Shown piece after piece: positions 6,164-43,734 of a DNA stretch of 64,000 nt. The DNA comes from an uncultured Gemmatimonadaceae bacterium (GTDB taxonomy: Bacteria > Gemmatimonadota > Gemmatimonadetes > Gemmatimonadales > Gemmatimonadaceae). The notes beneath the pieces were generated by a model. That model saw nothing but the letters and a program-made list of their open reading frames with translations, made no database searches and had not been told where the DNA came from. Each line of letters starts with the position of its first letter. The first letter of the stretch is position 1. The stretch spans positions 1 through 64,000 of the forward strand of contig CAWAGQ010000006.1 of NCBI GenBank assembly GCA_963781585.1, in the 5' to 3' direction. Made by a program: the position numbers and the translations under genes.

Positions 6164-6395
6164 CCAACCGGGGATTGCGCCGGACAGCGGCTAGGAGCGC
6201 TGCATCCGCGCTGTCGACTGCTCCTGCTGTTTGCGAAACCGTCAGAGCGACGATCCGCCGCCTGGAAGCCGCCGCCTGAGGAACCCGGTGCGCCGGTGCA
6301 TCGGCAGCGCGAGCTGACGCCTGATCTGTTCGCCGAGCGCCCGCTCCGATTCCTTGCGCAAGGCCGAGGGACGGCGGCGCGGCCGGCGCCTGGAG

Positions 6396-7980: not shown

Positions 7981-8286
7981 GCTCTCGCTCTCGCCATTGA
8001 GCGCTGGTCCGCCGCGTGGTGGCGGCGCCTCGCGGCATCGCTCCGGCCGCAACGGCGGCGCCCACCGCCGATGCGTCCGACAGCACCGACATCGCGTCAG
8101 GCCAAGACTCGTGACGGAACCCGTCAACGGTTGTCCGAAATGGTCATTGTCGAACCACAGGTTGGCCTCAAGATTGAAAACCGCTTGCGTTCTCGTTACG
8201 TCGTCCAGCCGGTTCATCGGCCTGCGAGTGTCTCGCCAGCCTCGACATCCTGAGGAGCTGTTGATGTTCACCAGTGTGACGGCGCC

Positions 8287-9480: not shown

Positions 9481-9482
9481 CA

Positions 9483-9704
9483 AGGAGGCAAGATTCAGTC
9501 GCGCATCTTGCTGACCTGCCAGACCTGTTGGGGTTCTCCGATTGTCTCCACGCGCCAGGAGTGATGGCCGCGATCGCGCAGGATCGCGTTTTCGCGGCCG
9601 GGCTTGGAGTTACCGGTACCCCAACGTTCATCGTGAATCGTGAATGGGTGCAGGGGTTGAGCCCGCCGGCGCTCCGACTGCTTCTGCTCTCCAAGATCCA
9701 CTAA
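9483..9704 (+). pseudogene. C-terminal remnant of a DsbA-like gene
   Basis: GLGVTGTPTFIVNREWVQGLS nearly matches SIGVTGTPAFIVNREWLQGVS of 38929..39579. No start codon or CxxC is present. Confidence 0.8.
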
Positions 9705-9794
9705 GGCTTGTCTCAGCTTTGCGAAATCCCATATTGGCGAGCGCAGGAAGGTCTTCGTGAGCAGGCCACCCATTCGACGCGTGCGAGGCCGAAG

Positions 9795-28152: not shown

Positions 28153-28232
28153 GGAGCCGCGGTCGGCCGTCGGCGTTGTCGATTCAGCCGCCCGTCAATC
28201 GCGTCCCGCTGCTCTGCAAGGCGGAGGGCATC

Positions 28233-30650
28233 ATGCCGATGCGCGAGAGCAATGACTGGTGGCTGAGGATCGCGTTCGTCGCGGCCCTGAGCTTGCCTTG
28301 GGGCCGGCCGCTCGTGGCCCAGGACGTCCGGGTTCTCGTGGTCGATCGGGCGTCGGGCGCGCCGCTGACCGGTGCGATCGTGTCGCTGGTGCTCGCGGAC
28401 GGGTCGCGGCACACCGGCGCCCTGACCGACGAGCAGGGGAGCGCCACCCTGCACGGCACGTTAGGCGCACGGGTCCGGGTGCGGGCCGAACGGATCGGCT
28501 ACGCCACCGACAGCGCGGCCGTTCTCGCGCTCACGGCGGAGCCGCAGGCGGTGCGGATCGCGCTGGTGCCGCAGCCACTGCAGCTGGAGAAGGTGACGGT
28601 GCGGGCACGCCGGACCTGCCGTCTGGATCCCACCACCGGTACCGTCGCGGCCCGACTCTGGGGCGAAGTCCACAAGGCGCTGGATGCCACCGTCCTCTCT
28701 GCCCCGCAACGCCTCCCGATCGACGTCTGGCGCTACACGCGGACCCTCGACCGGTCGCTGCAGGTGGTGGCCGAGACGACGGCGACGCGATCCGTCCCCG
28801 CTGGAGCGCCGTTCCTGACGGCGCCGCCCGCTGAACTCTCGCAACTGGGCTTCGCGCACCCGGTGGACGGCGAGCTCACGTATTTTGCGCCCGATGCGGC
28901 GCTCCTGCTCTCGGATCAATTCGCGCAGGACCATTGCTTCGGGGTGCAGGAGGTGCCGGGCGCGCAAACGCTGATCGGGCTGTCGTTCGAACCGGCGCCA
29001 AGCCGGCGGGTCAGCGACGTCACCGGCGTGCTGTGGGTCGATCGGCAGACGGGCGAGCTGCGGTGGATGGACTATTCGTATACCCGCCCGCCGGCGGGCG
29101 CGGAGCCCGGCCAGGCGGGCGGCCGCCTGGAGTTCACCGCGCTGCCTGACGGGCAGTGGATCGTCGAGCGGTGGTACATCCGGCTGCCGCGGATGGCGCG
29201 GGTGGGCGCCGCGCGCGTCGGCGCCTTCAGCGTGCCGACCCGTGACAGCCTCCTGGGCTACCGCGAAGAAGGGGGCTGGGCTGCGACGGAGTCAAGGCGG
29301 GGCGCTTGGGCGGCCGACCAGCCGACGTTGACCGGCCTCGTGTTCGACAGCCTCCACGGCGTGCCGCTCGCCAAGGCGCGCCTGCTCCTGGCCGGTGGCG
29401 TGGCCGACGCGGTCACCGACAGCACCGGCCGGTACCGGCTGCGCAGCGTCCTGGCGGGGCGGTACCGCCTAACGACGGCCGACCCGCGGCTCGCGCATTT
29501 CAGCCCCGAGGGGGCCGAGCGCGAGGTGGTGTTGTCGCGGGGCGCGGTGACCGTGGCCAACTGGGCCGTGGCCAGCGCGGCGACGTTGCGCGCCCGGTTC
29601 TGTGGAAAGGAGACGGGGCGGGGCGACCGGCCGCAGCTCATCATCGGATATCTCATCGACTCGCTCTCGGGCGCGCCGGTCGTTGGCGCGCGGGCGGTGA
29701 TGGCGTGGCGGCGCCTGGCGGTGCAGGCCTCGGAGCGGCTGGTGAGCGCGGCGGTCGGCGACTCCACCGTGGAGACGGAATCCGACGAGGCGGGGATCGT
29801 CACGTTCTGCCGGCCGCCGCGGCAGGACGTGGTGCGGTTGCGGGCGGAGCTCGGCGGGGTGCGGGTTGAGCGGAGCGTCCCAGCCGACGACACCGCGAGC
29901 GTGGTGGAGGTGCGGCTGGCCCTGAGCACCGCGGCGGCCGGATCGACCACGTTACGCGGGCGGGTGCTCATCAAGACCGATTCGGCGACGCGTCCCGCCC
30001 CCGCGGCGGAGGTCCTGCTGCCCGGGCTCTCGAAGTCGGCCCGGACAAATGGCGACGGTTCCTTCGCCTTCGCCACGCTCTCGCGCGGCACGTACACCTT
30101 GCTGGTGCGCGACGTCGGCTACCGGCCGGTGCTGGCGCGGGTGACGGTGCCGCTGCCGGCGGACTCGGTGCGAGAGTTCGTGCTGACGCCGATTTCCCCG
30201 GAGCTGCCAGGGGTGTCGGTCACGGCGATCGCGGTGTCGTCCAAGATGCGGGGCTTCGAGGAGCGGCGCCTGACCAATGCCGGTGGCCGGTTCATCACGC
30301 GCGCCGAGCTGGCGAAACACGAGGAGTGGCCCCTGAGCGACGTGCTGCGTTCGGTGCCCGGCGTGCGCCTGGTGCGGCAGCCGGACAACACGGTCTTTCT
30401 GGTGAGCACGCGCTCCGCGTTCGCGGCGACCATTTCGAAATCGGGCACAGACACCTGCTACTACCAGGTGTACCTCGATGGGACGGTGATCTTCCAGCCG
30501 GGCCGGGGGCGGCCGCCGAATATCGACGACTTTGCGCCGAACGGGATCGAGGCGATCGAGGTCTATGCGGGGCCAGCCAGCACGCCCATGCGGTTCAGTG
30601 GCATCGGTGCGGCCTGTGGCACCATTGTATTGTGGACGCGGGCGCCGTGA
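28233..30650 (+). CDS. Secreted protein with several carboxypeptidase-regulatory-like domains and a terminal plug-like domain
   Basis: GGAGG RBS; AERIGY, VRDVGY, GFEERR, VYLDG, IEAIEVY and CGTIVLWTR motifs. Confidence 0.85.
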   Translation: MPMRESNDWWLRIAFVAALSLPWGRPLVAQDVRVLVVDRASGAPLTGAIVSLVLADGSRHTGALTDEQGSATLHGTLGARVRVRAERIGYATDSAAVLALTAEPQAVRIALVPQPLQLEKVTVRARRTCRLDPTTGTVAARLWGEVHKALDATVLSAPQRLPIDVWRYTRTLDRSLQVVAETTATRSVPAGAPFLTAPPAELSQLGFAHPVDGELTYFAPDAALLLSDQFAQDHCFGVQEVPGAQTLIGLSFEPAPSRRVSDVTGVLWVDRQTGELRWMDYSYTRPPAGAEPGQAGGRLEFTALPDGQWIVERWYIRLPRMARVGAARVGAFSVPTRDSLLGYREEGGWAATESRRGAWAADQPTLTGLVFDSLHGVPLAKARLLLAGGVADAVTDSTGRYRLRSVLAGRYRLTTADPRLAHFSPEGAEREVVLSRGAVTVANWAVASAATLRARFCGKETGRGDRPQLIIGYLIDSLSGAPVVGARAVMAWRRLAVQASERLVSAAVGDSTVETESDEAGIVTFCRPPRQDVVRLRAELGGVRVERSVPADDTASVVEVRLALSTAAAGSTTLRGRVLIKTDSATRPAPAAEVLLPGLSKSARTNGDGSFAFATLSRGTYTLLVRDVGYRPVLARVTVPLPADSVREFVLTPISPELPGVSVTAIAVSSKMRGFEERRLTNAGGRFITRAELAKHEEWPLSDVLRSVPGVRLVRQPDNTVFLVSTRSAFAATISKSGTDTCYYQVYLDGTVIFQPGRGRPPNIDDFAPNGIEAIEVYAGPASTPMRFSGIGAACGTIVLWTRAP

Positions 30651-31735: not shown

Positions 31736-32191
31736 CTACAGCGCGCTGTCCATCGTCGCCGGATGGGCGCGGAGCCATTCGAGTAGCGCATCAAGCAGGC
31801 GTTCCACATCGCCGAGCTGGTCCCGGCAGATGAGGCGGAGTTCCTCGTCACCGACGGCGTGATAGAAGTGCACCATTCGGTTGCGATAGCCTGCAAGCCG
31901 GAGCATGAGTGCCGCGTCGGCCGTATCGAGGACGTGTACCTCCGCCAGCGTGTCGGCGATCGCCTTGTACTCAGCCACGCCACGTCCGAAGCCCTTGGCG
32001 AGGATGTGGCGACCGAGATCGAGCAGCGCCTCCAGCGCACGGCGCAGGAATGATTCGGCGGCGGCGACCGTTCGAGGATCGGCGCGAAAGTCGGCGGCAT
32101 CCAGCGGCAGCGCGCGAATCGCCGCGATCATGCGTCGAATCCGCGCCGCCCGGTCGGCCACGACGCCCGCGCTGATCGGCGCCGGCGTCAT
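31736..32191 (-). CDS. HEPN (DUF86/HepT-like) toxin
   Basis: RNRMVH (Rx4H) motif; coupled to the MNT gene. Confidence 0.87.
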   Translation of the reverse strand: MTPAPISAGVVADRAARIRRMIAAIRALPLDAADFRADPRTVAAAESFLRRALEALLDLGRHILAKGFGRGVAEYKAIADTLAEVHVLDTADAALMLRLAGYRNRMVHFYHAVGDEELRLICRDQLGDVERLLDALLEWLRAHPATMDSAL

Positions 32192-32625
32192 CGTCCGCCG
32201 CCGCGCAACACGAGCTCCCGCCGCTCGCGCTCCAGCGGGGCCAGATCGCCAGCGCGGCGCAGAATGAACAACTCGTACTCTGCCTGATCGACCGGATCCG
32301 CGCGGTAAAGCAGATTGCCCCGGATGACCGCCAACGCGAGGAACGGGCCCGCCTCCGTCACGACCAGCAGATCCACCTGTTTCACCCCAAGGGCATGCTC
32401 GAGCGCGAGCGTCAACTCGACGCGTTCTGCCGGAGTCAACAGGCGATCGCGCACCGGTCTGACGGCGATATCGACGTCGGAGTCGGTCTGGGCCGCGGTA
32501 TCGGCGTGCGGGGCGCCGGTCGCGATCTCGCCGGCGCGGCTGCCGAAGACGTAGATGTCGGCCAGGCCGAACTGCGTGGCGATCGCTTCGAGCCGCACCG
32601 GAGGGCTCTCGCTGGTGGGTGCCAT
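32188..32625 (-). CDS. Minimal nucleotidyltransferase antitoxin (MntA-like)
   Basis: YVFGSRA...DSDVDIAV and VDL motifs. Confidence 0.87.
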   Translation of the reverse strand: MAPTSESPPVRLEAIATQFGLADIYVFGSRAGEIATGAPHADTAAQTDSDVDIAVRPVRDRLLTPAERVELTLALEHALGVKQVDLLVVTEAGPFLALAVIRGNLLYRADPVDQAEYELFILRRAGDLAPLERERRELVLRGGGR

Positions 32626-32788
32626 GGCGGGAATCCTACCCGACGGCGTGGGCGCCGCCAAGTTGGCTTGTGCGGGAGGCCTTCCAGCGCCGATCGCCGG
32701 GCCGACGACAGGGACAGCGCCGGCGCTGCGGCTCGATGTCGTCGGTCTTCCTGCCACCGTGGCGCTCGCGTTACAGTCGTTAGGCTCT

Positions 32789-33127
32789 TCAGGTCGCGAT
32801 GATCTCATTGAGTCCGTCGATCACCGACTCGAGGTCCTCAGGTGAGGCGCGGCCCAGACGTCTCCCCAGGCGTTGGACCGAGAGTGTACGGACCTGACTG
32901 ATCTTGACCCAGGACCGCTTCGGCAGGCCGCGGCTCTGCAGTTCCAACGTGAGGGGGAAGCCCGCTCGTTGCGGCTGCGACGTGAGTGCCACCGCGATCA
33001 CTGTCCCGGAGCGTTCATTGAACACGTCGTGACTGAGGATCAGAACCGGTCGCAGTCCCGCCTGCTCGCGCCCGCGCGTGGGATTCAGATTGGCCCACCG
33101 GACCTCCCCTCTCAGTATTCGGGCCAT
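32789..33127 (-). CDS. PemK/MazF-family toxin
   Basis: RGEVRWANLNPTRGREQAGLRPVLILS and SQVRTLS motifs. Confidence 0.92.
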   Translation of the reverse strand: MARILRGEVRWANLNPTRGREQAGLRPVLILSHDVFNERSGTVIAVALTSQPQRAGFPLTLELQSRGLPKRSWVKISQVRTLSVQRLGRRLGRASPEDLESVIDGLNEIIAT

Positions 33128-33354
33128 GCTTGCAGGTCGGCTCCCAACCCTTCGTCCGCGAGGCGTTGCTCGTCCGCGGCCTCCAGTTTGGCGCATTCGG
33201 CGGCCAATTGACGCCGATCCAGCCGTGCCAAGGTGTCGGTCACCGCGGCTTCGATTGCCTGGCTGCGATTCCGGAACTGTGCCGAGCGCACCAGTCGGTC
33301 GAGCCGCTGGAGGGTGGTGGCGTCGAGGGTGACGGCAACCTTGGCTTTCGGCAT
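33112..33354 (-). CDS. Ribbon-helix-helix antitoxin
   Basis: MPKAKVAVTLD...NRSQAIEAAV; overlaps the toxin start. Confidence 0.88.
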   Translation of the reverse strand: MPKAKVAVTLDATTLQRLDRLVRSAQFRNRSQAIEAAVTDTLARLDRRQLAAECAKLEAADEQRLADEGLGADLQAWPEY

Positions 33355-33367
33355 CAGGACCTGCTCA

Positions 33368-33390
33368 GAGTATGATGTTTCATCATACTC
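33368..33390. promoter_or_regulatory. TA autoregulatory operator palindrome
   Basis: Perfect GAGTATGATG-ttt-CATCATACTC 13 bp upstream of the antitoxin ATG. Confidence 0.75.
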
Positions 33391-33562
33391 GATCTGATCG
33401 CCCCCCGTCAACCTGTGGGGCGGTCACGCCCGTCGTTCGTCATCGCGGCTCGGCGAGCTCAATGGCGGCTCTTGAACCGCTGATGATGTGCGAGAGTCCG
33501 GCTGTTGGGAATCTGCCCGTGTGCCTGCCTGCTGATGCCCCCGGGCAGTCCGGTTTCACAAG

Positions 33563-33605
33563 TTCTCCAGAAATCCACGCCCTTTGCCAGAAATTGACGT
33601 TGTGT
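33563..33605 (+). promoter_or_regulatory. CCAGAAA direct-repeat operator, copy 1
   Basis: TTCTCCAGAAA...TTGCCAGAAATTGACGT, half-sites at 33567 and 33587. Confidence 0.7.
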
Positions 33606-33785
33606 GCCTGATTGACCGTACCATAATGTACGAGCCCGCGACGGCGCGAGCATGATGAGTCAGCGATGGCGCGAGCAATTGCCGGGTCAGCCGCAAATGG
33701 TACGGCCATACGGCTGTCGATTCCTGACATCCATGTCGTGGCGACTGCCGCGAACGGCGCGCTAATTCTTCTGGAGGACACTGTC

Positions 33786-34076
33786 ATGACGGATCATCGA
33801 CTTCTGGTTCGGGCTGGGGTAGTCTTCGTGATTGGGCTGATCGCGATGCAAACGGGTCCCTCCAGTGCGCGCGCCGCCCCCGTTCTCGATGGATGCGATA
33901 GTCACGCGGCCTGCGCCTGTACGACGCTGGAGCCCGACTGCTTCTGGCTTGAGTACTTCGGTGAAGGCGACGCCGCCTGCCACGCCGCAGGCCTCGGCGA
34001 CTACTTGGGCTGCGTCGATCCACCGAATGAGATGTGCGGTGGTCAAGCGCTGATGGTGCGCTGTAACGTGGAGTGA
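33786..34076 (+). CDS. Secreted 8-Cys acidic peptide (96 aa)
   Basis: GGAGGA RBS; signal peptide ending ARA; spacing C-5-C-1-C-6-C-12-C-10-C-7-C-8-C. Confidence 0.82.
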   Translation: MTDHRLLVRAGVVFVIGLIAMQTGPSSARAAPVLDGCDSHAACACTTLEPDCFWLEYFGEGDAACHAAGLGDYLGCVDPPNEMCGGQALMVRCNVE

Positions 34077-34939
34077 TCAATGGCACTCCCTGCATGATCT
34101 TGCTGGAACCTGAGCACTCGGTGTCGGAGGTAATGCTCGCCTCGGCACGCCGTGGCCAGTTGATTCAAGCGAGGCTTGGTGCGGCAGCCATACTCCTGGC
34201 CCAATCGGCTGCGGCGCAAAGCGGCAGCCTGATCGGACGCATCTCGTCGGACTCCCTCAGGGGCGGCGCCATTGCGGCGGAAATCACCCTGCCGGCGCTT
34301 CACGCCGTCGCACACACGGACTCCCGCGGCCGCTACCGGGTAAGCGGGCTCGTGCCGGGACGGTATCTGGTCGAGGCACGGGCCGTCGGATTCAAGATGT
34401 CGGCCGACAGTGTGGACATTCCACGATCTGGGGAGGCGGTGCACGACTTCGCCCTCACGCGGTTTGTCGCCGCGCTGCCTCCCGTCGTGACGACGACTCC
34501 GGAAGTCCGGTACGTGTCGCCGGGGCTGCGGGGCTTCGAGACACGACGCCATCGCGGCTTCGGCCACTTCCTTGCCGAGGACATGCTTCGGAAGCATGAC
34601 GATGACCGGCTGTCCGATCTGTTGAGCACGCGGATCCCAGGGCTGTCAGTACAGCGCGCGAGCCAGAACGCGGCGTATGTCGCGTCGAGCCGGAAGCCGG
34701 AGGGTGGCGTTCGAGCCTTCGGCGGCGGTGGCCGGCCGATTCCCTGCTACGCGACGATCTACCTGGACGGTGCACTCCTCTACGACCCGACGCTCTCCGC
34801 GCAGCCGCCGCCCGACATCAACCAATTCACTGTCCATCAGTTGGGCGGGGTCGAGTTCTACGCAGGTTCGGCCACCACGCCGGAAGGGTTCAGGGTTTCG
34901 CCCTGCGGCACGCTGTTGCTGTGGACGCGTGAGCGCTGA
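34073..34939 (+). CDS. Carboxypeptidase-regulatory-like plus plug-like protein (start may be 34133)
   Basis: TDSRGRY, ARAVGF, GFETRR, IYLDG, GVEFY and CGTLLLWTR motifs. Confidence 0.85.
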   Translation: MINGTPCMILLEPEHSVSEVMLASARRGQLIQARLGAAAILLAQSAAAQSGSLIGRISSDSLRGGAIAAEITLPALHAVAHTDSRGRYRVSGLVPGRYLVEARAVGFKMSADSVDIPRSGEAVHDFALTRFVAALPPVVTTTPEVRYVSPGLRGFETRRHRGFGHFLAEDMLRKHDDDRLSDLLSTRIPGLSVQRASQNAAYVASSRKPEGGVRAFGGGGRPIPCYATIYLDGALLYDPTLSAQPPPDINQFTVHQLGGVEFYAGSATTPEGFRVSPCGTLLLWTRER

Positions 34940-35264
34940 CTCGCGCGCATCCGTCCCACCCAGCATTCCTGTAACGATCGCACCGGGCGATCTCGCCACG
35001 TGGTCGCCGACTCGGGCCGGACCGTGAGTCTGTCCCCTCCTCCCGCAGGCTGTCCCGCGCGAATCACACTGACCTGAACGGGCGCGTGTCGGACGACCCT
35101 GAGCCAGACACGCGGGCCGATGGTCCAGACACTGGAAGTGATCCGGGACGTGACGACGCCAGAGTTCTGGCAGGCTTGACTCCGGAAGCCGGGACGTCGC
35201 AGAGTGTGGGGGAGCGGCTTCCGCGCTTGCGCGACCGCCTCGTCGTCATGCAGGTGAGGTATCG

Positions 35265-36125
35265 ATGTCCACTTCATCCTCGTCGCGGTCAGTGCCTGAC
35301 ACAGGCTCACGGCGGGGAGCGGGCGACCGCGTTTCGCTCGAACAGCAGGTGCCCCGGGTGCCTGAGATCGTCGTGGACCTGGAAGCGCGCCCGCTGTGGA
35401 ACGAGATGGCGGAGGCGTTGGGCGCGATTACGGCGCGATTCATCGACGTGGCCGCAGCGGTACGCGAGGTCGATTCCGACGATGTTGGGCCTGCCTCCCT
35501 CGTCCTGTTGAGCGGGCGCACTGCGGACGGCGCGCCGAGCGAGCTGACGGTGCGCCGGCTGCGGACGCTGAACGTACACGTGCCCGTGTTGGTCGCCGTG
35601 GTCAACGTTCGGATGCGCGACGTTCCGGTGAAGGCCTACGCGCGCGCCGGCGTCGATGCCCTCTTCCTGATGGACATTCCCTTCGAGCGTGGGGAATTCG
35701 TGAAGGAGCTGCGCGCGCGACTCACGCTGCCCGTCCCTGCGCGCCTGCTCGATGCCCTCGGACGACTCCTCAGGCCGGGGGTCGGCAGGACGATCGGGTG
35801 CTGGTGCATGCGCAATGCTACGCGGACGTGTCCCGTGCGTCGCGTGGTCGACTACTTCCGAGTCGATGAGAGGCGGCTGGATAAGGAGGTGGAGACCCTC
35901 GGCCTTCCCCCGGTGGGGACGCTTCTCAGGCTCGGGTGTCACCATCGTGCGCTCGAGCTGGAAGCGAGCGGCGCGCTCTCCATGGAAGGGATTGCGGAGC
36001 AACTGGGTTTTCCCGACGCCAAGTCGCTGGCAGCAATGCGGCGGCACCTGCGAGGGTCACCACGTCTGGCAGCAGTCGCGTCGCCCATTCGGGAGCTTCT
36101 GATGATGGGGTTGGAGGAAGTTTAA
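35265..36125 (+). CDS. AraC-type regulator with degenerate receiver-like domain (start uncertain)
   Basis: RAGVDALF and SMEGIAEQLGFPD; paralog of 7141..7980. Confidence 0.72.
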   Translation: MSTSSSSRSVPDTGSRRGAGDRVSLEQQVPRVPEIVVDLEARPLWNEMAEALGAITARFIDVAAAVREVDSDDVGPASLVLLSGRTADGAPSELTVRRLRTLNVHVPVLVAVVNVRMRDVPVKAYARAGVDALFLMDIPFERGEFVKELRARLTLPVPARLLDALGRLLRPGVGRTIGCWCMRNATRTCPVRRVVDYFRVDERRLDKEVETLGLPPVGTLLRLGCHHRALELEASGALSMEGIAEQLGFPDAKSLAAMRRHLRGSPRLAAVASPIRELLMMGLEEV

Positions 36126-36217
36126 GGGCCATCGCAGGGTGCGGTGTACCACACCGGCATAGCCGGATGTGACGACAACGTGGCGCCACGGGACCGGTGA
36201 CTTCACGCGTTCAAATA

Positions 36218-36260
36218 TTCTCCAGAAAGTTGCGCCATTCGCCAGAAAGTGACGTGGTGT
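36218..36260 (+). promoter_or_regulatory. CCAGAAA direct-repeat operator, copy 2
   Basis: TTCTCCAGAAAGTTGCGCCATTCGCCAGAAAGTGACGT, half-sites at 36222 and 36242. Confidence 0.75.
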
Positions 36261-36334
36261 GCTGGGGGCTGCCAGTCGTAGCTTGGCACAACATGATGTT
36301 ATCCGTGAACTCTTGAACGGCATGGAGGCGTATC

Positions 36335-36595
36335 ATGTCGCAGCATCCCGTGCTCGTGCGCGCCGCGTTAGTGGTATTGATCGCGGCATTGTCGCTTATC
36401 TCACCGGCCCGCGCCGTTGCCGGCTCGGCGATGGTCTGCGCGACCATTTGCGGTGCTTGGATCATGTGCCCGGACGAGTTCGACCGCGACAACATGTGCT
36501 TCCAAGCTTGCGGCACCTTTTCGGTGACGGGGTGCTACATCTCCGGGGATCCAGGCTGCGAGCCTGGTTGGATTGCCTTCGACTGCGCCGGATAG
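36335..36595 (+). CDS. Secreted 8-Cys acidic peptide (86 aa)
   Basis: GGAGG RBS; signal peptide ending ARA/AVA; spacing C-3-C-5-C-9-C-3-C-7-C-7-C-8-C. Confidence 0.85.
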   Translation: MSQHPVLVRAALVVLIAALSLISPARAVAGSAMVCATICGAWIMCPDEFDRDNMCFQACGTFSVTGCYISGDPGCEPGWIAFDCAG

Positions 36596-36703
36596 ACGGT
36601 CGTTCGTTAGGGCTCTCTACCCTACCGCACGAGGTCGTTGCTGGGCGGTACGCTCAACAGCGGGTCGAAAAGAGACCCGGCGCTCTTGACTGAGGACGCG
36701 GTT

Positions 36704-37405
36704 ATGCGTGATCGACTCGACAGGTGGGCGACGCCGGTCCTGCTGCTCGTGGCGCTCATAATGGCGGGAGCGGCATTGCGGCGGGAACTGCGAACACCGG
36801 CCACCGTCGCCGCAGCTAATAGCCGTCCAATAGCGCCGCCTCAGTATTATACGGAGTGGATGGGTCTCCTAGCGAGCGGCGTGCTCATCGGGGACTCCGC
36901 CGCGCCAGTGAAGGTGATCGAGTTCGCCGATCTTGAGTGCCCCGTCTGCCGGCAGTTTCACGAAAGATTGGCTGAGACACGGAGAAAGTTCCGCGACAAG
37001 GTCGCTATCGTTTTTGTCCATTACCCGCTATCATATCATCGCTTTGCACGCCCCGCGGCCCGCGCCGCCGAGTGTGCCTCGAGACAAGATAGGTTTGCCG
37101 AGTATGTGGACGTCGTCTACCGAAAACAAGATTCGCTCGGGTTGAAGTCGTGGGCGTCCTACGGTTCTGACGCGGCAGTCGCAGACACCGGCGCCCTCGC
37201 CCTCTGTGCGAGAGATACTGCACAGGTGACGCGGATCGAGCGGGGCGTGCAACTGGGATCGCATCTGGAAGTCCGTGGCACTCCTACAGTGCTGGTCAAC
37301 GGTTGGCGCTTCGCTGAGCCGCCGGGCGATTCAGTGCTGACTGAAGCAATTGCGAGGCTCCTAGCCGGCAAGTCGCTGTCGGCCAGACGCGCGACGGGTT
37401 CCTAA
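36704..37405 (+). CDS. Membrane-anchored DsbA/BdbD-like oxidoreductase
   Basis: EFADLECPVC, HYPL and VRGTPTVLVNG motifs. Confidence 0.9.
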   Translation: MRDRLDRWATPVLLLVALIMAGAALRRELRTPATVAAANSRPIAPPQYYTEWMGLLASGVLIGDSAAPVKVIEFADLECPVCRQFHERLAETRRKFRDKVAIVFVHYPLSYHRFARPAARAAECASRQDRFAEYVDVVYRKQDSLGLKSWASYGSDAAVADTGALALCARDTAQVTRIERGVQLGSHLEVRGTPTVLVNGWRFAEPPGDSVLTEAIARLLAGKSLSARRATGS

Positions 37406-37407
37406 GC

Positions 37408-38505
37408 GTGACGATGCACGACAGCCAACCTGCGCTTTCTCACCACGGCGGCTCTCGCACGGGCCGAGGTGTCTTCAAAGGTGCGCAGGTTCGAGTGGAA
37501 CCGCGGCGATTGCCCGCTCGGAGCACGAACAAATGTGGGGGTGAGACGCCGGTCGAATCGCTCGGCAGCTGGACAACTCGCTTCGTCAAGAGCGTCATTA
37601 CACTCGTGCGCCGATGTATCTCGAGCCCTCGGCTGCACGCGGTCGTATGTCTCGCACTGGGACTACCGGAGACGAAGAACGAGGCTCTGGCCCAGTCGCC
37701 GAAGCTCACTGTTTCCGTTCTGGTCTCCGATACCGTGCGGAAGGGTCTCGCGGACGTAGAGGTGTTCCTCATCCAAGACACGATCGGCGCCGTCATCGCG
37801 GGACGCACTGACGCGGCTGGGCGCTACGTGTTTGCGATCGATGCGGGCAGCGGTCACTACGCTGTTGCCGCCAGGAAGGTCGGCTTCTCTCCTGCCCGAA
37901 CCGACGTTCCGTCAACGCGCCAGGACACCGTTCAACTTGAACTCGTGCTCCTCGCCGTGCCCGCGATCGAGCTGGATCCTGTCCGCATCGCCGCTGCGCC
38001 ACGCGGCAAGAACTACTTTCTCGACTCCGCGGAGATCGCGCGCACAACTCGCCGTACCATTCTGAACGCCTACGATGCGCTGCGGAGACTGCGGCCGGAC
38101 ATGCTGGGCGATCGCGGACGATGCCAGGAGCCCGTCGATAATGTCTGGGTGAACGGGCGCCGCGTGCTCTGGATGGCGCGATTTCAGCCGGGTTATCCTT
38201 CGACGTCTGCGCTCACGAGTTCCGCCAGGCGAGGGACTGTGGTGCGAGTCGCCGCGTCAAGGGAACCCGCCATCGTCGACTCGATCCTGGCCTCGATCAA
38301 GAGGGAGCACATCGCGGAGATCCGATACGTGAACTGCTGGGACCACTCAATGGCTGGAATGGGCACGAGCAACGCGGTTTTCGTCGTCCTGAAGCCGGGC
38401 GTGGCGTTCGACTGGTTTCGAGGGAGCTATGTCGATACGGCGGACACGCTTCCCAGAAGACCTCCCCAACGACTGGAGCTGACCCGACTTCGTAGAGAGA
38501 GCTGA
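37408..38505 (+). CDS. Carboxypeptidase-regulatory-like plus divergent plug-like protein (true start probably later)
   Basis: TDAAGRY, ARKVGF, VWVNG, IAEIRYV and NAVFVVLK motifs. Confidence 0.75.
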   Translation: MTMHDSQPALSHHGGSRTGRGVFKGAQVRVEPRRLPARSTNKCGGETPVESLGSWTTRFVKSVITLVRRCISSPRLHAVVCLALGLPETKNEALAQSPKLTVSVLVSDTVRKGLADVEVFLIQDTIGAVIAGRTDAAGRYVFAIDAGSGHYAVAARKVGFSPARTDVPSTRQDTVQLELVLLAVPAIELDPVRIAAAPRGKNYFLDSAEIARTTRRTILNAYDALRRLRPDMLGDRGRCQEPVDNVWVNGRRVLWMARFQPGYPSTSALTSSARRGTVVRVAASREPAIVDSILASIKREHIAEIRYVNCWDHSMAGMGTSNAVFVVLKPGVAFDWFRGSYVDTADTLPRRPPQRLELTRLRRES

Positions 38506-38765
38506 ACTGGGTTTTCCTGACGCCAAGTCGCTGGCAGCAATGCGGCGGCACCTGCGCCGCTCACCGCCCTTGAAAGCAGTAGCGCCGCCCATTCGGAAGC
38601 TTCTGATGATGGGGTTGGGCCAGAGGCGCACGGATCGGTAGTCTGACAGGGCGGTGTGGCGCCATCTCCAGAACGTGACGAGCAAACGCGGCTCCACCGG
38701 TCCTGCCCTCCACCGATTCGAATCTTCTCCAGAATGTTGCGCCATTCGCCAGAAAGTGACGTGGT
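38505..38765 (+). repeat. Diverged duplicate of 36001..36260 (AraC 3' remnant plus operator copy 3)
   Basis: AACTGGGTTTTCCyGACGCCAAGTCGCTGGCAGCAATGCGGCGGCACCTGCG is shared; CCAGAA half-sites at 38729 and 38749. Confidence 0.92.
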
Positions 38766-38928
38766 AGCTTTGCAGTGCCAAGCCTATCCTGTGCACACCA
38801 ACGGGCTTGTTAGGGCGACAGGGGCATCGCAGGCGACGCCACGGATGGGTGGCTGCCGTACGCTGCCGCTCGCGCCGTGACCGTAGCAGCGGGACGCCTG
38901 GCGGTACTGGGAGAGGCAGGAGACGCCC

Positions 38929-39579
38929 ATGGTCGTTCGGTCTCGAAGCGGGAGTATTCGAAGCGCCGCGATGGATCTTACGCTGGTTGCCGCCGTGATT
39001 GTGGTGGCGTTCACCGTGGTCTCGAAGAACAGGCCACATCGTGTTCTCATTGCGCAGCGCGACTGGTCCGCGCTTCTCGCGACTGATCTGGTCAGCGGCC
39101 CGCCAACGGCAAAGGTCACCGTGGTGGAGTTCGTGGACTACCAGTGCCCGGTCTGCGCGACGCTGGAGCCCGTTCTGGCCGCGCTCCAACGAGAATACCC
39201 GAAATCTCTTCGTCGCGTTGTGCATCACTTTCCGATCCCGCGATTGCATCCGGACGCCGTATTGGCCTCCGCGGCGGTGCAGTGCGCGGCGCGCCAGGGC
39301 CGCTTCGCACAAATGCACGCCGCCGTACTGGCTCACCAGGAGATGGTCGGGAAGCCCGCTGGCATCGACTCACTTACTCAGCTCGCGAGGATTCCGGATT
39401 ACCCGGCGTTGACAGATTGCATGCGCCTTGCCCGGACGGACACGGTGATCGGTAACGACCGGTCTTTTGGCGCCAGCATCGGTGTGACGGGAACGCCCGC
39501 TTTCATCGTGAATCGGGAGTGGCTCCAGGGCGTGAGCGCGCCCGAATTGAGGACGTTCTTGTTGGCGAGGCTGAACTGA
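38929..39579 (+). CDS. Membrane-anchored DsbA/BdbD-like oxidoreductase
   Basis: EFVDYQCPVC, HFPI and GVTGTPAFIVN motifs. Confidence 0.9.
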   Translation: MVVRSRSGSIRSAAMDLTLVAAVIVVAFTVVSKNRPHRVLIAQRDWSALLATDLVSGPPTAKVTVVEFVDYQCPVCATLEPVLAALQREYPKSLRRVVHHFPIPRLHPDAVLASAAVQCAARQGRFAQMHAAVLAHQEMVGKPAGIDSLTQLARIPDYPALTDCMRLARTDTVIGNDRSFGASIGVTGTPAFIVNREWLQGVSAPELRTFLLARLN

Positions 39580-39619
39580 GGATGCGGGAACGTCACCTTC
39601 AGAAAGGGAGGAATTCACG

Positions 39620-39910
39620 ATGTTTACCTATCGCCGCCGGCTACTGATCGCGGCACTCACGATGATCAGCTCCGCCAGTTTGCTCACGCGAACGGCGGCC
39701 TCGATGACCCCTGGTTGCCCTGAGAGCTGGAATGACCCGAATGGAGTGGACGGGTGGTCGCTCATGTTCCTTTGTGGAATGCAGGGGCCCTCCAACACGG
39801 GCTGCTATTACAACGGCATTGCAGACCCTCAGTGGGGCACTCTCAACTGCGACAACTATGAGTTCTATCCGGGCGGGTGTGATCAGCGCGGCTGCATGGT
39901 GACGGATTGA
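39620..39910 (+). CDS. Secreted 6-Cys acidic peptide (96 aa)
   Basis: GGGAGGA RBS; signal peptide; spacing C-18-C-9-C-14-C-9-C-4-C. Confidence 0.85.
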   Translation: MFTYRRRLLIAALTMISSASLLTRTAASMTPGCPESWNDPNGVDGWSLMFLCGMQGPSNTGCYYNGIADPQWGTLNCDNYEFYPGGCDQRGCMVTD

Positions 39911-39966
39911 CCATCCAAGGTCGAGCCTGGCGTCGCTGGCCAATCGAAGCGCAGTCTCCATGAAGG

Positions 39967-40021
39967 CTTAAGGAAGTCTTAATCGTCCTGCAATGGTGTA
40001 ACAACCTGGCGCGCGTATCTT
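39967..40021 (+). promoter_or_regulatory. 11-bp-period CTTAA direct repeats plus TATCTT box (second copy)
   Basis: CTTAA at 39967 and 39978, TGCAA at 39989, then CCTGGCG and CGTATCTT as at 28098-28152. Confidence 0.6.
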
Positions 40022-40097
40022 TGGCCTGCGCCGATGTACCATGTCCGCGGCACTCGTCTCTCGACTGGCGCGCGTGCGTGTTTTCTCGGAGGATGAC

Positions 40098-40961
40098 ATG
40101 AAGACGCCGCGACGGATGTCACAGTGCGCCCGGCTGCTGCAAACGTGCAGCGTGATGTTGCTGGCAGGCGCCGCCGCGGCGCAGACCAGCGGGAACCGTA
40201 TCGTCAGCGGCATGACCGCTGACAGCACAGGACGCGTCGTGCCGTACGTTACAATCTGGTTCGGCGGAACAGCGCGCACAGTGAGTGACGATTCGGGACG
40301 GTTCCGCGTGGAGCTGCCGCGGGAGGCGGGAGTCACCGTGCAGTTGCGGCGGCTGGGTTTCGCCCCGACCGATGTTCGACTCGAACCCGGCGGCGACACC
40401 GCAGTGGCGATCACACTGGTACCGGTGCCGGCAAAACTGGCGGCGCTGCGCGTGCAGGCGGAACAGCAGGTGCGCAGCCTGCAGCTGCACGGGTTCTACG
40501 AGCGAATGGCCGAACAGGAGAAGTGGGGCGGGTCGGGGCAGTTCGTCACGCCGGAGGAGATCGAATTCCGCAAGTCGCCGCGAACCACCCAGTTGCTGGA
40601 CGGCCGGCACGGTGTGGCGCTCAAGGGCGTGGGAAGCTGCAACGTCCAGGTGCAGTGTTTCGTCCCGTTAGGCACGAACAACTGCATCATGCAGATATAC
40701 CTCAATGGGCAACGCCTGGTGCCGACTGGAGGCGCGGGCGCCACCGCCACGGGCGGTATGGTGGCGACGGCGTTCAGGGCCCTGTCGGGCCAGGCGGCCG
40801 TAGTGGGTGGTCTGGGTCCGAACAACGTCGTCTTCCTCGACGATTTCGTGCACCCCTCGGAGCTCGCCGGCATCGAGATCTATCAACGGGCGATGCAGGC
40901 ACCGCCGCAATACCAGATGCTCAATGGCAATTGCGGTGTGATTTTGGTGTGGACCAAATGA
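40098..40961 (+). CDS. Carboxypeptidase-regulatory-like plus plug-like protein; close paralog of 9795..10616
   Basis: GGAGGA RBS; HGFYERMA..KWGGSGQFVTPEEIE and QAPPQYQMLNG.CGVIL.WTK are shared with 9795. Confidence 0.88.
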   Translation: MKTPRRMSQCARLLQTCSVMLLAGAAAAQTSGNRIVSGMTADSTGRVVPYVTIWFGGTARTVSDDSGRFRVELPREAGVTVQLRRLGFAPTDVRLEPGGDTAVAITLVPVPAKLAALRVQAEQQVRSLQLHGFYERMAEQEKWGGSGQFVTPEEIEFRKSPRTTQLLDGRHGVALKGVGSCNVQVQCFVPLGTNNCIMQIYLNGQRLVPTGGAGATATGGMVATAFRALSGQAAVVGGLGPNNVVFLDDFVHPSELAGIEIYQRAMQAPPQYQMLNGNCGVILVWTK

Positions 40962-41029
40962 GAGTCGCGTTGCCGCTCATCGTCCGAGGACTGGGCGGGG
41001 CGGAGTAGTGTCCTTGTCGGGGCGCTCGC

Positions 41030-41371
41030 TCATCCTGCGTGCTGCCTTGCCGCCACCGCGAACGCCAGAAAGTACCGCCGCAACCCGTCCGCTGAATCCG
41101 GCGGTACCTCCGGATCAAAGAACAGCCGGCAGAACTCCTCGCGTGCACGCAACACCTCCCGCCGCCGCGGGCCCCGCCATCTCTCGTCACCCGCGGTGAA
41201 ATCGAACAACTCGAGCGCCCGCGCCAGCGCGTGGTCGAATCGACTCTGGTTCCCGGACTCCCACGCGCGGATCGAACGCTCCACCTCGCTCCCCACGTGA
41301 GCCAGCTGTTCCACGATCGACAGCGTGCGCCACCGGGCCACCCGGTCCGCCTGACGAGTCGCCTCCGTCAT
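41030..41371 (-). CDS. Conserved hypothetical helical protein, partner of the DUF5674-like gene
   Basis: EQLAHVGSEVER...ALELFD...EVLRARE; ATGA overlap. Confidence 0.7.
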   Translation of the reverse strand: MTEATRQADRVARWRTLSIVEQLAHVGSEVERSIRAWESGNQSRFDHALARALELFDFTAGDERWRGPRRREVLRAREEFCRLFFDPEVPPDSADGLRRYFLAFAVAARQHAG

Positions 41372-41727
41372 GCGTCGCTCACGAGACGCGACAGGGTGCT
41401 CCGGACACGCTCGCGCAGCGCGGCGTCCTGAACGTCCCGACTCCGGTTCCCATCCGCCGGCCGCACGTTGATCATCGAGTCGAACTCGATCCACCCCTCG
41501 CCGTGCTCGGCCGGATAGAGGTTGATGCCCCAGAGGGAGGGCTGCCGCGATCCGTCATCCAGCAGCGCCGCTTCCTCGTCCGAGGCCAGCTCGCCTCCGA
41601 CCGCCATGACGTCCCTGTCGACATCGACCACCGCCTTCACCATATCCCCGAATTGTCGCTCCGCCATGGCACGGAGCTCCGCACGCGTGAGCGGACTGCG
41701 GACGAGGACGATGTCGCGACGTTCCAT
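41368..41727 (-). CDS. DUF5674-like protein
   Basis: MVKAVVDV, LWGINLYP and EFDSMINVRP..NRSR motifs. Confidence 0.75.
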   Translation of the reverse strand: MERRDIVLVRSPLTRAELRAMAERQFGDMVKAVVDVDRDVMAVGGELASDEEAALLDDGSRQPSLWGINLYPAEHGEGWIEFDSMINVRPADGNRSRDVQDAALRERVRSTLSRLVSDA

Positions 41728-42015
41728 GAGGCAGGGCTACTGTCGTTATTCCACGGACCGGGGTGCGCAAACTTGCCTCCGTCCCTGGTGCCGCTCAAGT
41801 GCACAGCCCAGCACATCGAGCCTCGAGAACCGCGGCATCATCAGGTCAGGCAAGCAGGTCGGCGCCGCGGTGCCTGTCGTCGAACGCCGCCGCAACACGG
41901 GCGCTTCGGTGGCCAGTCGCTCCGGTGAGACCCCCACCGTGGCGGCCTCGCCCGCCGGTCCCGTAGCTTAAACGGCACACAAGGCGCTCGGCTCTCCCCC
42001 AAACTTCGCACGCGA

Positions 42016-43734
42016 TTGGCACGATCCCAACCATCCGCCGCTCGCATCTCGCGTCTCGCGCTCACCGCCGCGCTCGCCGCTGCCCTCGCCTGTGCATCCG
42101 GTGCTCCACCGAACACGGGCACCGGTGCTGCCACCGTCCCGCCTCCACACAGCCAGGCCGAGCGCACCAACTACCGCGAGACCTCCACCCACGCCCAGGT
42201 CGTCGCCTTCATCGATTCGCTCAAGCTCCTCGGCCGTCCCATCGCGACCGGCAGCATCGGCACCACGTCGGAAGGACGCTCGCTCCCGTACGTCGTTGTC
42301 TCGCGCCCGCTCTTCGCCACCCCGGATGCCGCGCGCCGCTCAGGACGCCCCATCGTCTACGTCCAGGGCAACATTCACGCGGGCGAAGTCGAGGGAAAGG
42401 AAGCGCTCCTCGCGCTGGTGAGGGACCTCCTCCTCGATCCGCATCCCAACGTCCTCGACTCGATCGTCCTCATCGCCCAGCCCATCTACAACGCCGACGG
42501 CAACGACCATTTCGGTCCCCAGGCCCGCAACCGCGGCTCACAGAACGGCCCCGAGCTGGTCGGCACCCGCGCTAACGCCCAGGGCTACAACCTGAATCGC
42601 GATTACATGAAGCTCGACGCGCCCGAGTCGCGTGGCGCGCTCGCGATGTTCAACGCCTGGGACCCGCACGTCTTTGTCGACCTGCACACCACCGACGGCA
42701 GCTACCACGGCTACAACCTCACCTACGCGCCGTCGCTCAGCCCGGCCGCCGAGCTTCCAGGCTTCACCAATGGCGGCCTCTGGGCACATGACTCGCTGCT
42801 GCCTGAGCTCCGCCGCCGCCTCAACGCGCGCGACCACGTCGCCACCTTCGACTACGGCGACTTCCGCGGCGGCAACGATTCCGCCAGCGTCGCCCGCGGC
42901 TGGTATACGTTCGAGCACCTCCCGCGCTACGGCACCAACTACTACGGGCTCCGCGGACGCATCGGCATCCTGAGCGAAGCGTTCTCGCACGATCTGTTCG
43001 AGACGCGCGTGCACGCCACCTACGCGTTCGTGAAAGAGCTGCTCTCGCTGGTAGCCGAGCGTGGCGCGACCATCGCTGCCATGGCGCGACAGTCCGATGC
43101 CGCACTTCGTGCCGGGCGCAACATCCCGCCGATTCCGGTGCGCGCCAGGATGACCACGAATCGGAGCGACGACGTGGTGTATGAGGACCTCGAGCCTTCC
43201 ACCGATACGACCAACCGCGAGATCGGCGTCCGGCGCGGGATGCGCCGCACCGGCCGCTATCACACGCTTCGCATCCCCATCTACGACCGCTTCACGCCGA
43301 CCGTCACCCGACCCGCGCCATGGGGATACGCGCTCGCGCCCGGTGACACGTCGGCCGTGAATCTCCTCCGCCTGCACGGGATCGCCGTCGAGCGGATCGG
43401 TCGCCAATGGTCCGGCGACGCCGGCCCCCAGTTCCGCGTCGATTCCACCATCACCGACGCGCGCCCGTTCGAGCCCCAGGCCGCGATTCCGCGCCTGGAG
43501 GTCCGGCTCGTGGGCCGATGGGAATCAGGACAGACGGTCACGCTCGCTCCCGGCACCTGGATCGTCCGCGTGGCCCAGCCGCTTGGCGTGCTCGCGATGT
43601 ACCTGCTGGAGCCGGAGAGCGACGACGGGATCGTCGCCTGGGACATCGGCGGGCGCTCGAAGGGCGGCCCCGGGACCGCGCCGGTGGTTCGACTGGAGCA
43701 CCCGTTCCGGTCCGGTAGGGCGCCGGCGCCATGA
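42016..43734 (+). CDS. M14-family zinc carboxypeptidase, lipoprotein
   Basis: ALAC lipobox; IHAGEVEG, NADG, NLNRD and DLHTT motifs. Confidence 0.9.
   Translation: MARSQPSAARISRLALTAALAAALACASGAPPNTGTGAATVPPPHSQAERTNYRETSTHAQVVAFIDSLKLLGRPIATGSIGTTSEGRSLPYVVVSRPLFATPDAARRSGRPIVYVQGNIHAGEVEGKEALLALVRDLLLDPHPNVLDSIVLIAQPIYNADGNDHFGPQARNRGSQNGPELVGTRANAQGYNLNRDYMKLDAPESRGALAMFNAWDPHVFVDLHTTDGSYHGYNLTYAPSLSPAAELPGFTNGGLWAHDSLLPELRRRLNARDHVATFDYGDFRGGNDSASVARGWYTFEHLPRYGTNYYGLRGRIGILSEAFSHDLFETRVHATYAFVKELLSLVAERGATIAAMARQSDAALRAGRNIPPIPVRARMTTNRSDDVVYEDLEPSTDTTNREIGVRRGMRRTGRYHTLRIPIYDRFTPTVTRPAPWGYALAPGDTSAVNLLRLHGIAVERIGRQWSGDAGPQFRVDSTITDARPFEPQAAIPRLEVRLVGRWESGQTVTLAPGTWIVRVAQPLGVLAMYLLEPESDDGIVAWDIGGRSKGGPGTAPVVRLEHPFRSGRAPAP

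Follow-up and report, generated by a model that had tools for sequence, protein, structure and literature searches.

What are the three short, Cys-rich open reading frames (ORFs) clustered in the genome of an uncultured Gemmatimonadaceae bacterium: are they genes at all, are they related to one another, and what might their products do? They lie in a window of 64,000 nucleotides (nt), C6:1-64000 (contig CAWAGQ010000006.1) of assembly GCA_963781585.1, labelled G000 below, with a G+C content of ~67%. The assembly is of the metagenome type, with a completeness of 93.5% and a contamination of 7.19%. We found that the pairing of a miniprotein gene with a private DsbA gene recurs across Gemmatimonadota. 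For the three peptides of the window, termed pep1, pep2 and pep3, we propose that they are exported, oxidised by DsbA and act as binding ligands in the envelope or outside the cell, from cassettes of a shared kind; we give this reading an even chance.

Three genes for exported acidic miniproteins

The three peptide genes, with the precursors that they would encode, are as follows.

33786..34076, plus strand: pep1, a 96-residue precursor with a signal of ~30 residues (cleavage between …SSARA and AP) and a mature part of ~66 residues with 8 Cys, 11 Asp plus Glu and 1 Lys plus Arg.
36335..36595, plus strand: pep2, an 86-residue precursor with a signal of ~27 residues (cleavage between …SPARA and VA) and a mature part of 59 residues with 8 Cys, 7 Asp plus Glu and 1 Lys plus Arg.
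39620..39910, plus strand: pep3, a 96-residue precursor with a twin-arginine translocation (Tat)-like n-region (RRRLLI), an Arg in the c-region and a mature part of ~69 residues with 6 Cys, 8 Asp plus Glu and 1 Lys plus Arg.

Translation confirmed the ORF positions and the M-x-x-H-x-(L/V)-LVRA starts that an earlier note on this DNA had described for pep1 (MTDHRLLVRA) and pep2 (MSQHPVLVRA). These two peptides also share, as that note had it, the motif D-x-x-C-x-x-A and a terminal G-C-x7-C-x8-C, and pep3 indeed has a different 6-Cys pattern: the full frameworks are C5C1C6C12C10C7C8C for pep1, C3C5C9C3C7C7C8C for pep2 and C18C9C14C9C4C for pep3. The mature parts are acidic, as claimed, and the peptides have net charges of -6 to -10. 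The earlier argument that such acidity speaks against cationic membrane-lytic action holds more widely, since all 25 peptides collected across the genome and related loci for a tally of Cys and charge are acidic (Asp plus Glu 3-15, Lys plus Arg 0-4), which makes that action unlikely.

One alternative is that these are chance ORFs in GC-rich DNA and that no peptides are made. A stretch of 9 kb contains 115 ORFs of at least 30 residues, and pep1 is without a detected homologue. Against this, the sequence GGAGG stands 7-8 nt upstream of all three ATGs (8 nt for pep1), a suitable distance for a Shine-Dalgarno site, and all three precursors begin with an n-h-c export signal that ends in an A-x-A-like cleavage site. 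Moreover, pep2 has an orthologue that is 93% identical (P0001) and pep3 one that is 71% identical (P0008), every Cys is kept in both, and the two are located together on one 40,010-nt metagenome contig. A 3' remnant of pep1 persists on contig C2 of the same assembly (described below), and synteny with DsbA extends to another genus and to other metagenome-assembled genomes (MAGs). The G+C content at third codon positions is 0.70-0.78 in the peptide genes and similar in neighbouring genes of the island. We consider chance ORFs scarcely credible and conclude that the three ORFs are, as far as sequence can tell, genuine genes for exported, strongly acidic Cys-rich miniproteins with mature parts of 59-69 residues.

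The peptides resemble little else. A word-based search gave no homologue of pep1, and for pep1 and pep3 the ESM Atlas returned a best score of 0.77 or no usable match. None of the curated families in Pfam, NCBIfam or PADLOC, including models for heat-stable enterotoxins, bacteriocins and toxins, matched pep1-pep3, and sequence searches of the PDB with pep3 and with a profile of the pep2 family (see below) gave nothing below E 0.1.

The earlier note had called the N-terminal segment a leader. We found an ordinary export signal peptide instead, with neither a propeptide leader nor the leader of a ribosomally synthesized and post-translationally modified peptide (RiPP). Two other routes were considered and rejected: reading of the sequences gave no lipobox before the first Cys, which removes a lipoprotein signal, and RiPP maturation was set aside as the island is without a modifying enzyme.

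DsbA linkage and predicted disulfides

Two DsbA genes lie between or beside the peptide genes.

36638..37405, plus strand: DsbA 1, a Thioredoxin_4 protein with CPVC, a cis-Pro TP and an N-terminal membrane anchor (PF13462, 92.7 bits).
38929..39579, plus strand: DsbA 2, a Thioredoxin_4 protein with CPVC (PF13462, 67 bits).

Both pass the DsbA/Thioredoxin_4 test (the PF13462 cut-off is 23.2 bits), and C-P-x-C and T-P are invariant across six paralogues. To place this linkage in context, related loci were gathered by DsbA alignment, phylum groups were set from record titles, and neighbouring ORFs were passed through a crude filter that kept any whose N-terminus resembles a signal and whose mature part has 6 or more Cys. 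In G000, an ORF of this kind lies no more than 460 nt away from 8 of the 14 Thioredoxin_4 loci. One is also contained in 8 of 16 DsbA loci from Gemmatimonadota (6 of them within 200 nt) versus 1 of 63 from other phyla, where the lone ORF is non-coding in appearance, and in 8 of 80 metagenome loci. The Thioredoxin_4 family is also enlarged in this genome, which has 14 matches, whereas the counts for 60 genomes of its taxonomic family have a median of 4 and do not exceed 10; G310, from another genus, has 8. The unpublished genomes G008 and G034 are included in that 60-genome count and are otherwise present only as negatives, in the pep2 search (60 genomes), the pep2-family search (400 genomes) and the search for a 38-base-pair (bp) element (100 genomes) reported below.

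The Cys count is even in 24 of the 25 collected peptides, and in the odd one a Cys lies inside the signal peptide. Taken with the DsbA paralogues adjoining peptide genes, these counts favour disulfides over metal or Fe-S ligation, in line with the earlier note. The contrary view is that the Cys, together with Asp, Glu and His, ligate a metal or an Fe-S cluster, above all in pep3. The Tat-like signals speak for it (RRRLLI in pep3 and RRRFLI in P0008, each with an Arg in the c-region, in a genome that encodes TatC), as do the acidic composition and the two His of pep1. However, the DsbA 2 gene ends 41 nt ahead of pep3, no metal or Fe-S family of Pfam or NCBIfam matches, 18 of the 331 N-termini of the genome that look like ordinary signals also carry a loose RR motif, and the signals of pep1 and pep2 are plain Sec-type hydrophobic ones. 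With the even Cys counts added, we regard metal or cofactor binding as very improbable. A twin-arginine-like n-region, as in pep3 and P0008, is in any case unusual for a protein adjoining DsbA.

Relationships among pep1, pep2 and pep3

The earlier note had proposed that pep1 and pep2 share both a leader and a scaffold. The leader half of this claim stood. The two leaders align with a Smith-Waterman score of 43, which is matched by none of the other 331 signal-like N-termini of the genome, our background set, when compared with pep1 and by 2 when compared with pep2. The motif M..H.[LV]LVRA occurs three times in the six-frame translation of the genome, in pep1, in pep2 and in a truncated pep2 remnant on C2. 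When the first 30 codons are compared, third positions agree at 12 of 30 and second positions at 19 of 30; the likeness lies at the protein level and is old, not the result of a recent DNA copy. The leader similarity is therefore beyond chance.

Homology of the scaffold did not stand in the same way, since the pairwise test failed and the two profile tests disagree with each other. The last two Cys gaps are identical in pep1 and pep2, with P=0.005 under random Cys placement and 0.028 for any two consecutive gaps of the same index. A broad profile, built without pep2 from 10 peptides grouped by Cys spacing, scored pep1 at 12.8 bits, a value reached by 0 of 1000 shuffles; the match covers the C-terminal half, GEGDAAC…VRC. 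Two results weigh against paralogy. Pairwise comparison of the mature parts gave z of -0.9 to -1.0, with 431 of 500 shuffles equal or better, and a strict profile, limited to seven HMMER-supported members and again without pep2, scored pep1 at 1.1 bits, with 65 of 1000 shuffles equal or better. Against the spacing of the pep2 family, pep1 has the 8 Cys, but the fit is limited to the last two gaps. The scaffold similarity is therefore only suggestive, and we think it on balance probable that pep1 and pep2 are old, strongly diverged paralogues.

No such case can be made for pep3. It scores -2.7 bits against the pep2-family profile, with 163 of 200 shuffles equal or better, and its best pairwise value among 23 comparisons is z=3.2, against pep2. 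Between pep3 and its orthologue, conservation is no higher in the signal than in the core. By every test, pep3 is related to neither pep1 nor pep2 and forms a separate 6-Cys type.

A rare pep2-type family

The earlier idea of a fixed Cys scaffold with variable loops is borne out inside a family around pep2. We define this family by Cys spacing, an export signal and HMMER-detectable similarity; its framework, behind the signal, is C-x2-3-C-x5-6-C-x9-C-x3-4-C-x5-8-C-x5-7-C-x7-9-C, and pep2 belongs to it with profile matches of E 1e-20 to 1e-25. Three further members are encoded elsewhere in the genome.

C5 140107-140358, minus strand: pep5, a pep2-family member.
C9 149656-149919, minus strand: pep6, a pep2-family member.
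C13 238742-238915: a pep2-family paralogue (E 1.3e-4).

Peptides pep2, pep5 and pep6 are mutually related (z 5.4-6.6). Six of the seven relatives of pep2 are 27-33% identical to it while all 8 Cys are invariant; the seventh, P0001, is the 93% orthologue. Outside this genome the family thins out quickly. Among 1.84 billion cluster representatives, the family profile found six proteins in all: pep6, a cluster that unites pep2 with P0001, three independent proteins (P0003-P0005) and one unrelated repeat protein. Among 400 genomes of the phylum, a good match was present in G310 alone (locus L019, E 2.4e-8), where the neighbours are those of pep2, namely DsbA, the peptide and a CarboxypepD_reg protein. 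A search with pep2 as a single protein gave only weak matches in 60 related genomes (E ~0.005-0.01), and an iterated hidden Markov model search of 90,139 ORFs from the genome and related loci stayed at four members. The pep2 family is thus very rare. The weakest match of its profile, P0006 (E 4.7e-4), is a protein of 611 residues with ~six near-identical Cys-containing repeats and is probably a compositional match.

Barrel-less plug partners

Each peptide gene of the window is accompanied by a gene that we call NTE-plug, for an N-terminal extension (NTE) followed by a plug domain.

34073..34939, plus strand: NTE-plug 1, CarboxypepD_reg (PF13620, 37.3 bits), no beta-barrel; the true start is likely an ATG near 34133.
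37408..38505, plus strand: NTE-plug 2, a divergent subtype with paralogues on contig C9.
40041..40961, plus strand: NTE-plug 3, CarboxypepD_reg (PF13620, 37.7 bits).

In the partner proteins, a signal is followed by CarboxypepD_reg and then by another domain at the C-terminus. The last of these was assigned through an 824-residue paralogue in the window (28176-30650), whose C-terminus matches Pfam Plug (PF07715, 35.9 bits): the small partners align to it, and they carry a conserved CG..L.WTR/K at their end, just before the stop. The AlphaFold2 model of NTE-plug 3, with a predicted local distance difference test score (pLDDT) of 65.7 overall and ~85 in both domains, matches the NTE domain of SusC (9hfj, E 7.6e-6) and FepA (1fep, over 162 columns, E 6.5e-4). 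Searches for the barrel (PF00593) gave no match in the partners, whose chains stop 5-20 residues past the plug; as a control, the same search does show the barrel of a true SusC in locus L034. Without a beta-barrel, the partners cannot be transporters themselves. They are barrel-less, SusC-like proteins of NTE and plug. Like SusC/Oar-type TonB-dependent transporters, they place a CarboxypepD_reg N-terminal extension before a plug domain; unlike them, they stop right after the plug and have no 22-strand beta-barrel. The Oar transporter of Myxococcus is reported to be required for the secretion of a protein (PMC6434023).

For pep1-pep3, pep5, pep6 and pep4 (the last encoded on C2), a CarboxypepD_reg match is located 200-1113 nt away. 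The 28176-30650 protein itself has three CarboxypepD_reg domains and a C-terminal Plug, again with no barrel, and its paralogues on C9 (nt identity 90% and 78%) and on C5 are immediate neighbours of pep6 and pep5.

Cassette layout and a 38-bp element

The genes described so far fall into three cassettes, each opening with a copy of a 38-bp element.

Cassette 1: element 1 (33563), pep1, NTE-plug 1, regulator.
Cassette 2: element 2 (36218), pep2, DsbA 1, NTE-plug 2, remnant of the regulator 3' end.
Cassette 3: element 3 (38725), DsbA 2, pep3, NTE-plug 3.

33563..33600, plus strand: element copy 1, 11-nt direct repeats TTCTCCAGAAA / TTTGCCAGAAA 21 nt apart, then TGACGT.
36218..36255, plus strand: element copy 2, 80 nt ahead of pep2.
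38725..38762, plus strand: element copy 3, 167 nt ahead of DsbA 2.
35265..36125, plus strand: regulator of 286 residues, with a receiver-like N-terminal half and a weak AraC-type helix-turn-helix (HTH).
38505..38618, plus strand: duplicate (remnant) of the regulator 3' end, 89% identical to 36001-36114.

In consensus, the repeats read TTCTCCAGAAA / TT[CT]GCCAGAAA, spaced 21 nt and followed by TGACGT. The element has three matches in the window, where 100 shuffles led us to expect 0, and five copies in G000, all within these islands. A search of 100 further family genomes, one of them a 64% complete genome from the same genus, gave no copy. Its core is kept at ~82% where the flanks no longer align, and copy 1 is alignable in the core only, which argues for selection on the element itself. 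An Rfam scan of 32000-42000, the element included, gave no match, and a sigma-70 promoter scan of 33400-41100 gave 0 sites versus 1.2 expected.

The regulator scores 18 bits for HTH_18 (cut-off 33.6), and its profile retrieves SoxS/AraC (E 0.03) and the receivers of HupR/NtrC (E 0.05-0.4) from the PDB. The regulator gene or its remnant stands directly upstream of four of the five element copies, and from this adjacency we infer that the element may be an operator or promoter for the adjacent regulator. The same arrangement suggests that the peptides could be secreted, strain-specific signals, sensed by the plug or propeller proteins of the envelope, with feedback to the element and to the pseudo-receiver/AraC-like regulator; regulators of the same type are also found next to further peptide cassettes of G000. 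However, no known receptor family (TPR/RRNPP or histidine kinase) is encoded in the island, mature parts of 55-70 residues with 3-4 disulfides are large compared with known bacterial signals, and a cytoplasmic regulator would be unable to meet an exported, folded peptide directly. We judge a signalling role decidedly unlikely.

A fourth cassette of the window, at 7141-10616, is without a peptide. Its genes are the following.

7141-7980: a receiver-like/HTH regulator.
8287-9480: a six-bladed propeller (DUF5128) whose N-terminus carries a CxxC.
9708-10616: an NTE-plug protein.

Recurrence and rapid change of the cassettes

Across G000, the crude filter retained 21 Cys-rich signal ORFs, ~12 of them real-looking by eye, and we count about ten cassettes in this genome with many unrelated Cys frameworks. 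Further components of the cassettes are six-bladed propellers of the DUF5128 type, regulators that resemble LuxR or AraC and, in one case, a DsbA-propeller fusion. In other Gemmatimonadota, the neighbours are CarboxypepD_reg proteins (L019, L027, L028 and L112) or DUF5128 propellers (L038 and L050), and MacB, HlyD or OEP efflux genes adjoin the DsbA module in L028, L033 and L107. No description of such cassettes was found in the open-access literature; as far as that literature shows, the combination of miniprotein, DsbA and barrel-less plug is previously undescribed.

Contig C2 offers a direct comparison. Its stretch C2:2570-77071 is colinear with the whole window at 84-99% nt identity: either the bin contains two strains, or a very large duplication has taken place. 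On C2, 111 nt stand in place of pep1 and its element and keep only the 3' end of pep1 (…VRCNVE), and the plug gene next to this remnant is frameshifted by a 1-nt indel between signal and mature part, which could be an assembly error. A DUF5128 propeller gene of C2 is joined to an element copy and to the initial 15 pep2 codons (MSQHPVLVRAALVVS, followed by a stop). C2 is also without pep3 and DsbA 2 and has a module of its own, composed of an element, pep4 and DsbA. These differences between C2 and C6, together with the toxin-antitoxin pairs that flank the island, suggest that cassettes are gained, lost and recombined quickly.

Such turnover is what bacteriocin-like antagonists might show, in which case released, oxidised miniproteins would harm related strains and the plug protein would be an immunity decoy or self-receptor. 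Several observations point that way: the cassette content that varies between C6 and C2 (pep1 deleted, pep2 cut to 15 codons, pep3 and DsbA 2 absent), fast divergence (71% in the pep3 orthologue) with many unrelated Cys frameworks per genome, the bordering toxin-antitoxin pairs (PemK/MazF-RHH and HepT-nucleotidyltransferase), an integrase that adjoins one related module (L112), and the efflux genes beside three related DsbA modules. Known bacteriocins are reported to enter cells via TonB-dependent receptors (PMC6434023). Against these points, the peptides have no lytic or enzymatic domain and are acidic, not cationic; a Sec signal alone would get a peptide only to the diderm periplasm; and in the island we recognised no immunity gene, no double-glycine leader and no C39 exporter. 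PADLOC gave no match for 14 proteins, and no Pfam toxin family was found. An antagonistic role therefore seems unlikely to us, though less so than signalling.

A proposed route for the peptides

If the peptides are indeed exported, DsbA-oxidised ligands, the following route can be envisaged. The regulator would act on the 38-bp element and switch the cassettes on jointly. Each precursor would cross the inner membrane, by Sec for pep1 and pep2 and by Sec or Tat for pep3, and would be cut after its A-x-A-type site. The DsbA of the cassette could then oxidise the peptide, so that four disulfides (three in pep3) form a compact, protease-stable acidic knot. Most speculatively, the folded miniprotein may be a binding ligand or small subunit of the co-encoded plug protein, or of the propellers in other cassettes. 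It would act as a ligand either in the envelope or once the cell has released it, with no membrane lysis.

Several findings weigh against this reading or against parts of it. The cassette of pep1 has no DsbA of its own, the enzyme being present in two of the three window cassettes. Since many of the cassettes are paralogous duplicates of one another, counts of neighbouring genes lack independence, and copy counts may be inflated since C2 is possibly a second strain and contamination stands at 7.19%. CarboxypepD_reg is very common in this genome (114 domain matches), which bears on the pairing with plug proteins. The similarity of the regulator to AraC proteins and receivers is weak, and its link to the element is one of adjacency. 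The AlphaFold2 model of the pep2 family, made from eight sequences, is unreliable (pLDDT 55.9). Finally, the twin-arginine-like n-region of pep3 could mean Tat export of a protein that is folded in the cytoplasm and perhaps carries a cofactor.

A broader interpretation, which we consider possible but doubtful, is that Gemmatimonadota carry oxidative-folding cassettes in which regulator-controlled, fast-diverging and acidic disulfide miniproteins, matured by Sec and DsbA, form a ligand-receptor or toxin-immunity pair with a cognate plug or propeller protein, their 3' parts being recombined behind a shared promoter element and leader. The basis for such recombination of 3' parts is the pep2 remnant that is fused to the propeller gene on C2. 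Disulfide-rich miniproteins are well known in animals, plants and fungi; in bacteria they are, to our knowledge, rare and poorly catalogued. If true, this cassette class would be a bacterial counterpart of venom-peptide gene superfamilies, in a little-studied soil phylum where many Cys frameworks are tied to DsbA paralogues and to envelope proteins (plug proteins and DUF5128 propellers). Were the peptides ligands, signals or antagonists, they would provide a function for the DsbA expansion (14 versus a median of 4) and for the barrel-less plug proteins, as well as a new source of stable peptide scaffolds. Were they structural envelope proteins only, the gain in annotation would be modest.

Comparison with known systems

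The enterotoxin STII (STb) of Escherichia coli is exported by Sec, oxidised by DsbA and released by MacAB-TolC (PMC5985334), and this route shows that a Cys-rich peptide of such a kind can leave a diderm cell. The likeness to our peptides lies in a small Cys-rich precursor, a Sec signal, periplasmic disulfides made by DsbA and possible export by a tripartite pump (MacB, HlyD or OEP near three related modules). STII differs in being served by a housekeeping DsbA and in having 2 disulfides, whereas 3-4 are predicted here together with a private DsbA paralogue. It has no sequence or Pfam relation to the window peptides, the window cassettes are without a pump, and toxicity is not implied here.

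In the sublancin 168 operon of Bacillus subtilis, sunA is accompanied by the thiol-disulfide oxidoreductase genes bdbA/bdbB. As here, a secreted, disulfide-containing peptide is genetically linked to its own Dsb-type enzymes; the Gram-positive host, double-glycine leader, ABC exporter, S-glycosylation and known immunity protein belong to sublancin only. Class II bacteriocins and microcins likewise have a double-glycine leader, a C39-peptidase ABC exporter and an immunity gene, whereas the peptides here have n-h-c signals ending in A-x-A, and the genes of the island include neither an ABC nor a C39 gene.

DsbA enzymes dedicated to one substrate are known from the pairs DsbL/AssT and SrgA/PefA. 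The DsbA of Bordetella pertussis is a further paralogue of this type, reported to be dedicated to pertussis toxin (PMC12724015). Such paralogues resemble those described here in being specialised for one substrate and often encoded beside it; elsewhere, however, the substrates are large proteins or pilins, whereas the putative substrates here are miniproteins of hypervariable sequence, and a single genome carries an expanded DsbA family of 14 loci.

Conotoxin and defensin superfamilies are like the pep2 family in combining a signal peptide, a fixed Cys framework, variable loops and many paralogues. The peptides here differ in being bacterial and acidic and in having no propeptide, and conservation is higher in the signal than in the core for pep1 and pep2 only, not for the pep3 pair. 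The CSalpha-beta cis-defensin signature pairs a helical CxxxC with a downstream CxC; pep2 has a CxxxC with no CxC downstream of it, and pep1 has a CxC at the N-terminus only.

Quinoprotein amine dehydrogenases combine a small, cross-linked Cys-rich subunit with a beta-propeller subunit and the thioredoxin-like MauD. Other G000 cassettes are reminiscent of this in joining an exported Cys-rich peptide, a DUF5128 propeller and a thioredoxin fold, with one DsbA-propeller fusion. Unlike in those systems, there is no Pfam match to the MADH light chain and no MauG or radical-SAM gene, and the window cassettes carry plugs rather than propellers.

Further features of the loci

Several genes at or beyond the borders of the island, or in related loci, are recorded here in their own right.

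31736-32808, minus strand: a HepT-like RNase and a Polbeta nucleotidyltransferase, a toxin-antitoxin-like pair bordering the island.
32789-33411, minus strand: PemK/MazF and an RHH protein, a second bordering toxin-antitoxin-like pair.
41368-41727: DUF5674.
42016-43734: an M14 zinc carboxypeptidase just beyond the island, conserved on C2.
L012 (G000:C5) 5337-6734, minus strand: a 465-residue ORF fusing a DsbA/Thioredoxin_4 domain with a DUF5128 propeller segment, directly downstream of a 74-residue Cys-rich signal-peptide ORF and a LuxR-type regulator.
L016 (G000:C10) 7064-8438: two related 10-Cys peptides (…CSQHCDPG…CC…) on both sides of DsbA, with a framework unlike those of the window.
L027 13-3028, in a Gemmatimonadaceae MAG: a peptide-DsbA-plug module ~1.6 kb downstream of a Ser/Thr kinase-TPR gene.
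L027 13-513: a LanC-like fragment 4.1 kb upstream of the peptide, present in this locus only.

A role of the peptides as carboxypeptidase inhibitors was considered and set aside. Protein inhibitors of M14-type carboxypeptidases are small and disulfide-rich, with a short tail after the last Cys. The peptides also have a short tail after the last Cys, a likeness that we record as a resemblance only.

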